Shown: positions 40,623 through 45,309 of the stretch, in pieces
How the letters are laid out: the number at the start of each line of letters is the position of its first letter
Numbering within the stretch: position 1 is the stretch's first letter
Source: an uncultured Arcobacteraceae bacterium
Lineage (GTDB): Bacteria > Campylobacterota > Campylobacteria > Campylobacterales > Arcobacteraceae
Assembly (NCBI GenBank): GCA_964022095.1
Contig: CAXHZO010000001.1
Location: forward strand, 1 to 64,000
Direction: 5' to 3'
Length of the DNA: 64,000 bases
The notes under the pieces: generated by a model
Databases searched by the model: none
The model's input: only the letters and a program-made list of their open reading frames with translations
Told to the model about the DNA's origin: nothing
Made by a program: the position numbers and the translations under genes

Positions 40623-42077
40623 CTAAGAAGAACAACTTAATTTCATATTTGCGTATTTTATAGGAGTTGGATTTGCATAGTTTTCAAAATTGCTATGCTC
40701 ATCAAATGGATTTTGAGCAATTTTCAATAGATCATTTACAAGTGAATAATCTCCATCATGAGCTTTTTCAATGGCTTCTTGAATCATATAGTTTTTTAGT
40801 ATATATTTTGGATTTACTTTTTTCATAATTTCATATCTTGATTCAAAACCACTACTTTGTTCTTCACAAACTTTTTTATAGGCTTCAAACCATTTTTTAA
40901 TAGGCTCTTGAAAAACTGCTATATCTAAAATTGTATTTAAATCATCAAATGACTTTATGAAAGTTAATCTATAAAAAAATACATTATAATCCATTCTTGA
41001 AGTTTCTAAGGCTCCTAGTAATTCAAGTATTAATTGAAGATTTGAGTCTGAACTTTTATTTGCATTTAATCCTAGTCTTTTATTCATTAAGTTTAAATAT
41101 ACATTTTGATGTTGAGATAAAAATGTCTGCATATAACTTGCTAATTTTTCACCATCACATATTTTACTTAGACAATCCGCTAAAACCATTAAGTTCCATC
41201 TTGCAACATATGGTTGATTGTTGTATGAGTATCTTCCTTCATGGTCTGTATGATTACAAATAGCATTTTTTTCAAAATAATCCATAAATGCATAAGGTCC
41301 ATAATCTATCGTAAGTCCTGCCATTGAAAAATTATCAGTATTCATAACTCCGTGTTGAAAACCATAAGCTTGCCATAAAGCCAAAAGTTCAGCTGTTTTA
41401 TCAACTAGTGAATAAAACATTTTTTCAACTTTATTTTCTACTTCAATTAAGTGTGGATAAGATTGATTAATCACATAATTAGCTAGTTGTTTTAGATTTT
41501 CTTCTTTATTTTTAGTTCTAGCAAAAAACTCAAAAGTACCAATTCTTATCCAAGAAGGACTCATTCGCATGACAATTGCACATGACTCTTGATTCCACTG
41601 TCTGTGTGCATAAGTCTCTGAATCAATTATTCCTAAAGCTCTAGTAGTAGGAATTCCTAAGTGATGCATAGCTTCACCCATAAGATACTCTCTAATACTG
41701 GACCTCAACACTGCCCTGCCATCACCTTGTCTTGAATATTTTGTAAGTCCTGAGCCTTTTGTTTGTAAGTGCCAACTGTTTATACTTCCAAGGTTTATTG
41801 CTCTTCCATCACCAAGTTGTGGTACAAAGTATCCAAACTGATGACCTGCGTAAACCATTGAATATGGCTTACTTCCCTTTAGAATTTTTGTTCCATTTAT
41901 AAAATCAATAAACTCTTGTGTTTCGCAAACTTCATAATCAAGTCCAATTAAATCACACGCTTCTTTATTATAAGAAACAAGTTTTGGATTTAAAAGAGGT
42001 GTTGCATCTAGTTTTTGATATAAACTTTCATCAAATTCAAAGTAATCTACTTCAAGTTTTAGTTCATCTAATTTCAT
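40623..42077 (-). CDS. ydiU: SelO/YdiU protein adenylyltransferase (Cys form; start may be up to 63 nt further upstream)
   Basis: YAGHQFG, QLGDGRA, KGSG.T.YSRQGDGRAVLRSSIREYL, HGVMNTDN, C-terminal SCSS. Confidence 0.95.
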   Translation of the reverse strand: MKLDELKLEVDYFEFDESLYQKLDATPLLNPKLVSYNKEACDLIGLDYEVCETQEFIDFINGTKILKGSKPYSMVYAGHQFGYFVPQLGDGRAINLGSINSWHLQTKGSGLTKYSRQGDGRAVLRSSIREYLMGEAMHHLGIPTTRALGIIDSETYAHRQWNQESCAIVMRMSPSWIRIGTFEFFARTKNKEENLKQLANYVINQSYPHLIEVENKVEKMFYSLVDKTAELLALWQAYGFQHGVMNTDNFSMAGLTIDYGPYAFMDYFEKNAICNHTDHEGRYSYNNQPYVARWNLMVLADCLSKICDGEKLASYMQTFLSQHQNVYLNLMNKRLGLNANKSSDSNLQLILELLGALETSRMDYNVFFYRLTFIKSFDDLNTILDIAVFQEPIKKWFEAYKKVCEEQSSGFESRYEIMKKVNPKYILKNYMIQEAIEKAHDGDYSLVNDLLKIAQNPFDEHSNFENYANPTPIKYANMKLSCSS

Positions 42078-42144
42078 ATTAATTTTCTCTTTTTTCATAA
42101 TTATTCGTATATATGAAATTACTTTATCAAAAAAAAACATAATA

Positions 42145-42183
42145 TAGGATAAAAAATATCCTATTTAACTTGATAACAATCAA
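42145..42183. promoter_or_regulatory. TAGGATA-N5-TATCCTA operator plus Fnr/Nss-type box between ydiU and hemerythrin
   Basis: TAGGATAAAAAATATCCTA (42145-42163) and TTGATAACAATCAA (42170-42183). Confidence 0.68.
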
Positions 42184-42736: not shown

Positions 42737-43438
42737 TTAAGACATAATTTCATCAATAGTAATATAATCACCTACTCTTCCAGTCATTTGTTCTACATCT
42801 GTATTTACAGGAAGTGTTTTTTTACCTGGTTTCCATCCTGCTGGACAAACTTCACCTGTTTTCTCTGCATGTTGCCATGCTCTTACTTGTCTAATAAACT
42901 CATGAACATTTCTTCCAACCATTGGTGCTTGTACTTCTTGTGCTACAACAGTTCCTTCTGGATTAATTAAAAATCTACCTCTAAGTGCAATCCCTTCTTC
43001 TTCGATCATAACACCAAATGCTCTACTTACATCACCTTTTGGGTCTGCACCAATTGTTAATTGTAAACCGTCTAATAATGGTTCAGTTTCAACAAATCTT
43101 TTATGAGAAAACTTAGTATCTGTTGATACAGCCAAAATTTCTACTCCAAGTTCATCAAATTCTGATTTCATTGCATTCATAGCTGCAATTTCAGTTGGAC
43201 AAACAAAAGTAAAATCTGCAGGATAAAAACAAACTACACTCCACTTTCCTTCATAATCTTCACTTGATACTGTTTGGTAATGACCTGTTTTTGCATTATA
43301 TGCATCCATTTTAAACTCTGGGGCTTTTCTTAAAACTAAACTTGAACTCATTTTTTCTTCCTTTTTTTTCTCTATATTTTCATTATTTATATTATTTTCA
43401 TTTTCTTCGATTGGTTTTGAACCTGTATCACAAGCCAT
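42737..43438 (-). CDS. 2-Cys peroxiredoxin (AhpC/PrxU-like) with N-terminal extension
   Basis: FYPADFTFVCPTE and GEVCPAGW; AAGGAG SD before ATG 43438 (MACDTGSKP...). Confidence 0.92.
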   Translation of the reverse strand: MACDTGSKPIEENENNINNENIEKKKEEKMSSSLVLRKAPEFKMDAYNAKTGHYQTVSSEDYEGKWSVVCFYPADFTFVCPTEIAAMNAMKSEFDELGVEILAVSTDTKFSHKRFVETEPLLDGLQLTIGADPKGDVSRAFGVMIEEEGIALRGRFLINPEGTVVAQEVQAPMVGRNVHEFIRQVRAWQHAEKTGEVCPAGWKPGKKTLPVNTDVEQMTGRVGDYITIDEIMS

Positions 43439-43455
43439 AATATTCTCCTTTTCCA

Positions 43456-43474
43456 AAGGATAATAATTATCCTT
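43456..43474. promoter_or_regulatory. Fur/PerR-like palindrome between the -10 and RBS of the peroxiredoxin gene
   Basis: AAGGATAATAATTATCCTT, containing GATAAT-A-ATTATC. Confidence 0.6.
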
Positions 43475-43626
43475 TGATAAAAATATTATAATACTTATAT
43501 TCTTTACTATAGCTTAAATTATAAATTTTTATTATAAAAATATAATAAGTTTTACTTATACTACTTTCTTTACAAACTCTAAACAAAAAACAAATAAAAT
43601 ATTCCTACAAAAACAAAGGAATAAAA

Positions 43627-43992
43627 ATGAAAAAACTACTATTCATTTTGCTATTTCTTACTTCATCAGTTTTTGCATTTGAAGATTTAACAGATGCAAC
43701 TTTTGATAAAAAAATAGCAAATAAAAAAGTAATAGTAGATTTCTATTCAGTATATTGAGGTTCTTGTAAGATTCTAGGTAAGAATTTAACAAACTTTAGC
43801 ACAAGTACCAAGCCAGCTGATGTAGAAATCTATAAGGTAGAGATATCTGATCAAAAAGCAATTGCAGCTAGATTTAATGCCTTTGCAGTGCCTATGTTAG
43901 TTTATTTTAAAAATGGCAAAGAAGTTGCTAGGGAAATTGGTGTTAGAAGTGTTAAACAACTAGAAGAAAATGTAAACAAATATTTAAAATAA
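43627..43992 (+). CDS. exported thioredoxin with in-frame TGA (probable selenocysteine, UGSC motif), 121 aa
   Basis: AAGGA SD; MKKLLFILLFLTSSVFAFEDLTDATFDKKIANKKVIVDFYSVY(TGA)GSCKILGKNL...YKVEISDQKAIAARFNAFAVPMLVYFKNGKEVAREIG...; TGA at 43756-43758 occupies the first Cys position of CxxC. Confidence 0.88.
43764..43792 (+). promoter_or_regulatory. putative bacterial SECIS hairpin
   Basis: TTGTAAGATTCT-AGGTA-AGAATTTAACAA; 12-position stem with one mismatch and one G-U pair; loop begins 17 nt after the TGA. Confidence 0.75.
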
Positions 43993-44011
43993 AAGAGTCA
44001 TCTCTTTTATT

Positions 44012-44206
44012 TTAAAACTCATTACCATCAATACTATCATATGAGTAACTACTAATTACTCCATCTTCAACACTATATGAAATCTCAATTGGCCTACAAC
44101 AAACTTCACAATCATCTACTAAAGTTGTGTGTTCATAAACTCCTGTATCAATTAAAACTGAAATTGCTTGCAGACAGTATGGACATGTGATATTTAACTC
44201 TTCCAT
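44012..44206 (-). CDS. CPXCG-like cysteine-rich small protein
   Basis: CPYC...DDCEVCCRPI. Confidence 0.82.
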   Translation of the reverse strand: MEELNITCPYCLQAISVLIDTGVYEHTTLVDDCEVCCRPIEISYSVEDGVISSYSYDSIDGNEF

Positions 44207-44307: not shown

Positions 44308-45309
44308 ATGCACTTAATACAGAAATTCCGTAAGATACTTAAAAGAAAAGGAATAGACCTACTAATAAATATTTTAAGTTTATTTATTGTCGTATCTTTT
44401 TTATTTGGTATATATATTTATGAATATGAAGATAAAAACTTTATAGATACTCTTTACTATTTATTTACAACTGCTACAACTGTTGGATATGGAGATATCA
44501 GTCCCCAAACAGACCTAGGAAAAATCCTTAGTATCTTTTATATGGTAGTTTCAATAGCTCTTTTAGGGGTAATAATAGGGATTTTCACAGAACAATTTAT
44601 TGCAAAACTAGAAAAAAGAAAAAAAGGAAATATAAGAATGAAGAAGAACATTGACCTTATGATTTTAGGATATCCAAGTGAAGATAAGATTAGAGAAATT
44701 GTTACTCAACTAAGAGGTCACTCTTCATGGGAATACAAAACTATAGTTTGTGTAACTGATAACTTACATGAAAGACCAATTTGGTTTGAAAGTTTAAATA
44801 TTGAGTTCAAAAAAGGAGTTGCAAGTTTAAAAGATGTATTAATTGATGCAGGTATTATGAATACAAAAACGGCTTTGATTCTAGCCCAAGATGCAAATAA
44901 TGTAAAATCAGATGATTATACAAGCTCAATTTCCTTAGTTATTGAAACAATAAATAAAGACGTAAGAACAATAGTTGAAAAAGTAAGAGAAGATGACACT
45001 TTATTTCAAGCTTGCAATGCAGATGTAATAACAAGGGTTTTAAGTCCCCACGTACTTGCTCAAGAAGTACTATATAAAGGTGCTATTCAACTACAAAATG
45101 AGATGTTTGATAATACTACTAAAACTTCACAAATCAATCAAGAAATCAAAGAAGATATAACTTGGGGTGAATTAGCCATAAAACTAATAAAAGAAAATAA
45201 AATCCCTGAGGGTTATTTACTAAAAGGGGAAGATCAATTTAATCTTAGTCCAAAATTTGAAGACACTATAAGTGCAGGCTCATTAATTAAGTTTAGAGGT
45301 CAACTTTAA
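44308..45309 (+). CDS. potassium channel with RCK/TrkA domain
   Basis: Selectivity filter TTATTVGYGD, 2 TM segments, C-terminal RCK-like domain. Confidence 0.9.
   Translation: MHLIQKFRKILKRKGIDLLINILSLFIVVSFLFGIYIYEYEDKNFIDTLYYLFTTATTVGYGDISPQTDLGKILSIFYMVVSIALLGVIIGIFTEQFIAKLEKRKKGNIRMKKNIDLMILGYPSEDKIREIVTQLRGHSSWEYKTIVCVTDNLHERPIWFESLNIEFKKGVASLKDVLIDAGIMNTKTALILAQDANNVKSDDYTSSISLVIETINKDVRTIVEKVREDDTLFQACNADVITRVLSPHVLAQEVLYKGAIQLQNEMFDNTTKTSQINQEIKEDITWGELAIKLIKENKIPEGYLLKGEDQFNLSPKFEDTISAGSLIKFRGQL

Follow-up and report, generated by a model that had tools for sequence, protein, structure and literature searches.

A predicted exported thioredoxin with selenocysteine at its active site in Arcobacteraceae

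The thioredoxin gene and its in-frame TGA codon

The window analyzed here is a 64,000-nucleotide (nt) stretch of DNA from an uncultured Arcobacteraceae bacterium (contig CAXHZO010000001.1 of assembly GCA_964022095.1), whose genome (2.57 Mb, 31 contigs, 99.99% complete) is called the source genome below. It carries a frame on the forward strand that is interrupted by one TGA codon and that most probably encodes an exported thioredoxin in which selenocysteine (Sec, U) takes the place of the first cysteine of the CxxC active site. The features of the locus are collected in Table 1. The TGA is the only internal stop of the frame, which has no frameshifts, and under translation table 11 the gene is broken into an open reading frame (ORF) of 43 amino acids and another of 34. 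When the TGA is read through, the product consists of MKKLLFILLFLTSSVFA followed, after the expected cleavage point, by FEDL…VIVDFYSVY-U-GSC…AVPMLVYFKNGKEVAR…. Contigs from two other public runs span the TGA unchanged, one covering 43632-43817 with 0 differences (X1) and the other covering 43629-43802 with 2 differences (X3), and an assembly error at this codon is thereby excluded. The X3 run is recorded as a metatranscriptome and an RNA label for X1 is a guess; since such libraries may contain DNA and only contigs are on record, this cover of the 5' part of the gene does not amount to proof of transcription, and stretches that are not covered carry no information.

The protein belongs to the thioredoxin family. 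Residues 20-117 match positions 4-102 of the 103 in Pfam PF00085 (Thioredoxin) with an E value of 3.7e-19 and 69.1 bits against a gathering cut-off of 23.5, and PF13098 is matched weakly (27.8 bits, cut-off 27). An AlphaFold2 model computed from a 53-sequence alignment has a mean predicted local distance difference test score (pLDDT) of 91.5, with values of 91-98 outside the signal region and low confidence over the first 17-20 residues. Its secondary structure elements follow the order beta-alpha-beta-alpha-beta-alpha-beta-beta-alpha of a canonical thioredoxin, and U44 lies directly ahead of the helix formed by residues 45-60. When the model was compared with solved structures by Foldseek, the matches were classical thioredoxins; the best was the Staphylococcus aureus thioredoxin 2o7k (target template modelling score 0.93, root-mean-square deviation 1.3 Å over 103 columns), and Helicobacter pylori thioredoxin was within the top six.

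The N-terminus is laid out like a signal peptide, with n, h and c regions: MKK, with two lysines, is followed by LLFILLFLTSSVF and by A ahead of FE, giving a hydrophobic core of 13 residues; positions -3 and -1 are V and A. Averaged over 9 residues, hydropathy peaks at 3.2 in this segment. Among the 53 homologs, F16, A17 and E19 each reach a conservation of 90% or more, so that the junction reads F-A-x-E. From these sequence rules, the hydropathy and the conservation of the junction, we infer that the protein is exported and periplasmic. The gene had been singled out by a sequence-only reading, which described a Shine-Dalgarno motif, a signal-like layout ending in VFA, a thioredoxin fold and a single TGA at the attacking-Cys position with no other stop or frameshift; each of these was recovered here at the same place. 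Its proposal of a periplasmic Sec-thioredoxin stood as regards the Sec-thioredoxin, which the relatives, the hairpin and the sel genes described below support, and its periplasmic part is a prediction from the N-terminus.

Table 1. Features of the Sec-thioredoxin locus, in window coordinates
Feature	Position	Strand	Remarks
Shine-Dalgarno AAGGA	43616..43620	+	Read directly; ends 6 nt short of the ATG at 43627
Sec-thioredoxin coding sequence	43627..43992	+	121 codons, then TAA; TGA codon 44 read as Sec
Predicted Sec-translocon-type signal peptide MKKLLFILLFLTSSVFA	43627..43677	+	Cleavage expected ahead of FEDL; V at -3, A at -1; hydropathy; pLDDT 55-69 here
TGA, Sec codon U44, attacking residue of U-G-S-C	43756..43758	+	Cys homologs have the first Cys of CxxC here; 34 further copies have TGA
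Hairpin resembling a Sec insertion sequence (SECIS)	43764..43792	+	Lower stem 43764-43767/43789-43792; upper stem 43769-43775/43781-43787; loop AGGUA 43776-43780
TGT, resolving Cys47	43765..43767	+	Invariant in 53 sequences; codon also within the lower SECIS stem (alignment columns 16-18)
CCT, Pro89	43891..43893	+	Invariant in 53 sequences
Palindrome AGGATAATAATTATCCT, AGGATA-N5-TATCCT, candidate operator	43457..43473	.	In the divergent peroxiredoxin/Sec-thioredoxin intergenic region
Second, exact copy of the palindrome	42146-42162		Divergent promoter region between SelO and the hemerythrin-domain gene
Sigma-70-like promoter match TTGATA-16-TATATT, candidate	43474..43501	+	Region has 5 such matches; mean of 4.7 in shuffles (no excess)
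SelO	40623..42140	-	Two genes off; hemerythrin-domain gene and peroxiredoxin between
Peroxiredoxin	42737..43456	-	Divergent from the Sec-thioredoxin gene
CPXCG-family protein, small, Cys-rich	44012-44206	-	PF14255, E 5.3e-12; convergent on the Sec-thioredoxin gene
K+-channel-like gene, two transmembrane segments	44308-45309		Next after the CPXCG-family gene
Cys/Met-metabolism pyridoxal-phosphate enzyme pair	45403 and 46564

Relatives, the SECIS-like hairpin and the Sec machinery

A first six-frame search covered 60 relatives and gave 11 matches with exactly one TGA; the search was later extended to all 184 genomes of the family and to 401 genomes sampled from the order. In the family, 34 matches carry one TGA, and they are found in 31 genomes of 8 genera by our count. 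The order sample added one copy, with the active site WUHSC, from a second family, and no TGA-bearing match was found at E <= 1e-18 in the other families of that sample. In total, a TGA at the same codon is present in 35 gene copies from 32 genomes, nine genera and two families of one order. In tblastn alignments the TGA always stands opposite the first Cys of CxxC (WCPPC or WCGPC), and the homologs thus have either Cys or TGA at this position. The Sec copies are 44-58% identical to the window protein over their full length. C44 (the position of U), C47, K70 and P89 are invariant in the 53 sequences, K70 and P89 lying past the UGA; P89 we take to be the cis-proline of the thioredoxin active-site loop. 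A purine core (AAGG or AGGA) is found close upstream of the start in all 11 Sec copies compared.

The active site is U-x-x-C in 34/34 family copies, with GS, SS, GA, YA, FA, PS, PA, SA or EA as the middle residues; with HS in the second-family copy, ten dipeptides occur among the 35 copies, and PP is never found in a Sec form. The window copy does read UGSC, as had been claimed, and this is one of ten forms rather than the motif of the family.

The hairpin begins 5 nt past the TGA and exactly 17 nt separate the TGA from its 5-nt loop AGGUA, which is the distance that had been reported for it; the reading that pointed it out also holds in the relatives, where the structure is conserved and covaries. 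Covariation was analyzed over the 35 Sec copies, which give 32 distinct rows and, with 11 pairs, 352 cells. Standard pairs occupy 91.2% of these cells, compared to 33.5-65.6% when the 3' arm is slid by 1-3 columns. Changes on both sides of a pair were found in 33 cells, against 13.0 +/- 2.8 in column shuffles, 0 of 500 of which reached 33, and against at most 4 with the slid 3' arm. Three upper-stem pairs are compensatory (G-C to A-U or U-A to C-G and the reverse), in 9, 11 and 13 sequences, and the set of 11 Sec copies gives the same picture. Some of the compensations change the encoded residues of both arms, as when GUU/AAC (V, N) becomes GCU/AGC (A, S). The second base of the loop (G28 of the alignment) is an invariant G. 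Over the same 45 nt, the Sec copies fold with a mean of -7.2 kcal/mol and 10.1 of the 11 pairs, compared to -3.1 kcal/mol and 8.2 of 11 in 18 Cys copies. In its distance from the TGA and in its 5-nt loop, where one G never varies, the structure has the geometry that bacterial SelB uses, and the window hairpin fits the consensus given for epsilonproteobacterial SECIS elements, a hairpin of 5/6 base pairs (bp) a few nt past the TGA with an invariant G in the loop (Cravedi et al. 2015, PMC4607533). Because CUA-GGU-AAG provides the loop of the hairpin, the L-G-K motif past the active site is partly dictated by the RNA.

The source genome carries the machinery for Sec insertion. A selA gene was found (E 4.6e-142) with tRNA-SeC (selC, anticodon TCA) adjoining it, and a 615-residue frame immediately downstream of selA contains the C-terminal winged-helix domain of SelB. 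The selD gene (C10:68099-69016, minus strand) has itself one in-frame TGA, with a hairpin of 5 bp and the loop CGGGU 16 nt past the TGA that was read by eye and for which RNAfold gave a different fold. A fragment of a formate-dehydrogenase alpha gene at the start of a contig (C15:5-379, plus strand) also has an in-frame TGA; here the computed fold contains a 5-bp hairpin with a 5-nt loop, GGUGU, starting 18 nt downstream. SelA is present in 108/184 genomes of the family compared to 30/31 carriers of the Sec-thioredoxin. The one carrier in which SelA was not found (G201, 86% complete) possesses a selD with a TGA; the second-family carrier has SelA as well as such a selD. Every carrier genome thus contains selA or a TGA-bearing selD. 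Two outcomes that would have counted against selenocysteine had been named beforehand, a genome lacking the Sec machinery and relatives with only TGT or TGC and no conserved hairpin; selA, selB, tRNA-SeC and selD are all there, and 34 further copies keep both the TGA and the covarying hairpin.

Searching a collection of 5.8 billion proteins with the window protein gave 36 matches. Among the 16 that were fetched, the full-length ones nearest to the window protein have W at the Sec site (P0002, 95% identical, reads YWGSC), and other near matches are 68-residue fragments that begin past the TGA with MTKY or LTKY; entries of these two kinds are P0002-P0007, P0010 and P0032-P0036. Only Cys forms bear a name, 'thioredoxin domain-containing protein [Aliarcobacter sp.]'. 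In NCBIfam, no model reaches its cut-off and none that is specific for selenoproteins fits; TsoB is matched faintly (14.5 bits, cut-off 805). As the collection shows W or stubs and none of the NCBIfam models fits, the gene has in effect no annotation as a selenoprotein, which bears out the earlier remark that ORF callers miss it. These calls in public metagenome proteins look like a systematic annotation artefact, in which the W would have arisen from use of a table with TGA as Trp on short contigs.

Paralogs, export and the proposed function

Most Cys homologs read WCPPC, and the source genome has one at C4:112038-112382 that is 44-45% identical to the window protein. It has the same length and fold and a signal peptide with the same type of junction (FAFE/FGFE); it differs in having Cys instead of Sec, the PP dipeptide and no conserved hairpin. 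A maximum-likelihood tree, computed with the U/C column masked and the second-family copy left out, placed 15 WCPPC proteins on one side and the 34 family Sec forms with three odd Cys forms on the other, the split having a support of 81/82. The tree would allow the Sec clade to have arisen once. The Sec and Cys labels require 4 changes on the tree and the starred branches force only 2, and a single origin is thus unproven. L065 (2501-2875 in genome G198), a Cys form reading WCPSC, falls among the Sec forms and keeps the whole SECIS hairpin; over a 48-nt stretch starting 6 nt ahead of the codon, its sole difference from the Sec copy L013 is TGA to TGT. We therefore read it as a recent switch between Sec and Cys, in either direction, with a 'fossil' SECIS. 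Locus L044 (C1:911444-912224 of genome G197) has, in tandem beside SelO, a Sec form and a Cys paralog that has diverged strongly (WCDIC, on a long branch); with another Sec copy at a different place, G197 has four family members in total.

The WCPPC clade is linked to DsbD. All 15 of its members are followed by a gene for a three-domain DsbD (DsbD_N, DsbD_TM and a thioredoxin-like C-domain), and in one genus two Sec copies (L014, L059) fill the WCPPC slot ahead of dsbD in genomes with no other copy at E <= 1e-20. Given this linkage and the occupation of the slot by Sec copies, the exported thioredoxins are likely clients of DsbD, with interchangeable Sec and Cys forms. Most WCPPC paralogs are also preceded by a divergent single-domain rhodanese, cytoplasmic, with the active-site loop CAHANRT; the order rhodanese, exported WCPPC thioredoxin, DsbD is found in the source genome at C4:110538-115655 (L036, L040) and at 14 other loci, and some genomes add a second rhodanese-like protein with a signal peptide and without the active-site Cys.

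We propose the following scheme for the window protein. During a pause of the ribosome at the UGA, SelB-GTP carrying Sec-tRNA(Sec) would bind the hairpin and insert Sec. The N-terminal 17 residues would target the product to the Sec translocon and would be cut off behind VFA. The selenolate would then attack disulfides or sulfenic acids of substrates in the periplasm, and the resulting selenenylsulfide would be resolved by Cys47. The oxidized U-C bond would finally be re-reduced by the membrane electron shuttle DsbD. This last step is drawn by analogy with the paralog, as the window copy is unlinked and few Sec copies are linked to dsbD, and we give it roughly even odds. That the Cys paralog always precedes dsbD is what points to a DsbD-fed periplasmic selenol/thiol reductant, and the neighborhood, which holds SelO, hemerythrin and peroxiredoxin genes, suggests a link to oxidative stress. 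From this context, the best reading of the role is that of a periplasmic selenol/thiol reductant in envelope redox stress. We put the probability that the gene encodes a 121-residue exported thioredoxin precursor in which the first Cys of CxxC is Sec (U44-G-S-C47), working as proposed, at about 0.88.

A number of observations weigh against this reading. The selenium in the protein is predicted, as is its export, which is read from N-terminal sequence rules. Taken as a single sequence, the hairpin is not significant: with a minimum free energy of -10.2 kcal/mol it has a z of -0.80, and equally good folds came from 39 of 200 shuffles. A scan of 43400-44100 with Rfam returned no SECIS family and only chance-level microRNA and small nucleolar RNA matches (best E 0.18). 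It is the comparison with relatives, not the single-sequence fold, for which the hairpin is taken as real. The only other species of the genus (G001) has no Sec form though selA is present, which indicates that the gene is dispensable. The window copy is not beside dsbD, which in the source genome lies on contig C4, and only 2/34 Sec copies are. The thioredoxin equivalog model TIGR01068 of NCBIfam is matched below its cut-off (77.9 bits, cut-off 96.8); for this reason and because of its signal peptide, we regard the protein as a member of the thioredoxin family and not as TrxA itself. By sequence, the solved structures that match best are a-domains of the protein disulfide isomerase (PDI) family (TXNDC5, 1.5e-21; PDIA4, 2.5e-15), and the dipeptides of the Sec forms (GS, GA, YA and others) are unlike the CPPC of the DsbD-linked paralog.

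The last two points make an oxidase or isomerase role the main rival, in which the protein would still be an exported selenoprotein and would act as a periplasmic oxidant or isomerase of the PDI/DsbA type, or as a scavenger of peroxide or sulfenic acid. The variable dipeptide, with no PP in any Sec form, would fit such a role, as would the position of 32/34 Sec copies away from dsbD; in addition, the window copy stands beside a peroxiredoxin gene and has in its intergenic region a palindrome in common with the SelO/hemerythrin promoter region. Against it, the structurally nearest proteins are classical reducing thioredoxins, the paralog clade is strictly linked to dsbD, and in one genus Sec forms replace the paralog there. 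We hold this role to be possible though unlikely.

Two further explanations concern the codon itself. A pseudogene, that is an exported thioredoxin killed by a nonsense mutation from TGT or TGC to TGA, would account for the splitting of the frame by table 11, and it agrees with the lack of a Sec form in the relative of the same genus and with the presence of a Cys paralog in the source genome. This is hard to maintain for a TGA that recurs in 35 copies from 32 genomes with full-length conservation beyond it, next to a hairpin that covaries and alongside a Sec machinery whose occurrence goes with that of the gene, and we give it next to no weight. Reading of the TGA as tryptophan or another standard residue would be in line with the full-length database entries that show W, such as P0002. 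However, TGA terminates 103 of the 1113 frames of at least 300 codons in the source genome and is thus an ordinary stop there; a Trp at this position, which matches the catalytic Cys, would destroy the active site; the entries with W are mostly on contigs of ~1-2 kb; and both the sel genes and a SECIS hairpin are there. This explanation is very improbable. The exported Sec-thioredoxin thus remains the reading we prefer.

Known selenoproteins and the gene neighborhood

Several families of selenoproteins resemble the window protein in part. A table in PMC9312934 lists 'Thioredoxin (Trx), pfam00085, UxxC' as experimentally verified (WP_010956703.1, with reference to Kim et al. 2015). Compared by the description given in that table, it has in common with the window protein PF00085, Sec at the same position of UxxC, a thioredoxin fold and a bacterial SECIS within the ORF, whereas the window protein has a signal peptide and a dsbD-linked Cys sister. 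As a consequence of the signal peptide, the window protein should not meet the cytoplasmic thioredoxin reductase. The organism of WP_010956703.1 is presumably Treponema denticola. The exported UxxC thioredoxin-fold families comprise known members that are larger than the window protein. As listed in the same table, these families, predicted to be exported, are a thiol:disulfide interchange protein (pfam13098) and DsbA-like, DsbG-like and thiol-disulfide isomerase-like proteins (PMC9312934). They are likewise exported thioredoxin-fold oxidoreductases with Sec first in CxxC; as tabulated, they belong to other Pfam families (Thioredoxin_2, _4, _8 and DSBA), in contrast to the minimal classical domain of ~104 residues found here. 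The table further holds a 'UGSC-containing protein' family from ocean metagenomes (ABI76733.1) with no Pfam domain; by description only, the window copy also reads U-G-S-C, and it differs in that its family has a clear PF00085 domain and ten dipeptides. For an epsilonproteobacterial proteome, one annotated Sec 'thioredoxin (Tr)' is given by Cravedi et al. (2015, PMC4607533), from the same bacterial class, which may or may not belong to the window family.

In the literature searched, we found no published description of the subfamily, and the work of Cravedi et al. (2015) was the only paper that came up for selenoprotein thioredoxins in connection with Arcobacter. The window protein adds a member, arguably a new exported subfamily, to the catalogued UxxC thioredoxin selenoproteins. 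The subfamily is well supported and effectively unannotated, and it occurs in widespread marine and animal-associated Campylobacterota, apparently Arcobacteraceae going by how the nearest database homologs are named. Its misrepresentation in databases, as W or as a 68-residue stub, matters for counts of selenoproteomes and for expression of the protein. The pair of Sec and Cys paralogs, L065 with its intact hairpin and the RNA-dictated L-G-K lend themselves, as a clean natural system, to the study of dual coding and of exchange between Sec and Cys. What is known of how bacteria make or use selenoproteins is not changed.

SelO, a protein adenylyltransferase, is directly adjacent to and divergent from the Sec copy in 15/34 Sec loci (L007, L008, L011, L013, L042, L043, L047, L050, L051, L053-L055, L057, L058 and L061). 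At one further locus, a tandem Cys paralog separates the Sec copy from SelO. In animals, SelO is a selenoprotein. The linkage could reflect inherited synteny or co-regulation. The pair of pyridoxal-phosphate enzymes found in the window follows eight Sec copies.

The peroxiredoxin gene is divergent from the Sec-thioredoxin gene, as the sequence-only reading had noted, and a peroxiredoxin stands beside the Sec-thioredoxin in 0/33 other Sec loci with clustered flanks. This neighbor was consequently rejected as a general functional clue, the arrangement being peculiar to the source genome. The protein is a 2-Cys peroxiredoxin with AhpC-TSA and 1-cysPrx_C domains; its best NCBIfam match is PrxU, the family of the selenocysteine peroxiredoxin, at 210.8 bits and below the cut-off of 270, and it has Cys at the active site (FVCPTE). 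The match takes in an N-terminal extension of ~35 residues, acidic and rich in asparagine, which is unusual.

The palindrome AGGATA-N5-TATCCT occurs in 0 of 100 shuffles of the window, and 4 copies were counted in the source genome compared to ~0.28 expected from base composition. Besides the two copies in Table 1, one lies upstream of cytochrome bd oxidase subunit I and another upstream of an SbtA-like transporter/PII pair. In the 84 loci that were scanned, none of the relatives has it, and the only matches were in the window region itself (L006) and at two other sites of the source genome. The palindrome is a candidate operator of a redox or oxygen regulator. On this basis, one may imagine that the Sec-thioredoxin and the WCPPC thioredoxin form a periplasmic selenium/sulfur pair of isoenzymes, in which the Sec form would provide a faster relay from DsbD to antioxidant targets in the envelope and would be induced through the palindrome together with SelO, hemerythrin, the PrxU-like peroxiredoxin and cytochrome bd. 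We regard this as speculative and rather improbable; if true, the isoenzyme pair and the shared operator would make up a previously undescribed regulon of oxygen and redox stress that includes a periplasmic selenoprotein.

Promoter-like matches were set aside as a signal, their frequency around the gene being no higher than in shuffles. A scan for terminators around the gene found none by the rule of the scan; by eye, a hairpin AAAGAG-TCAT-CTCTTT followed by T's can be seen downstream of the stop codon, with too few G-C pairs. Relative to the order SelO, Sec-thioredoxin, pyridoxal-phosphate enzymes in relatives, the CPXCG-family gene and the channel-like gene appear to be inserted.

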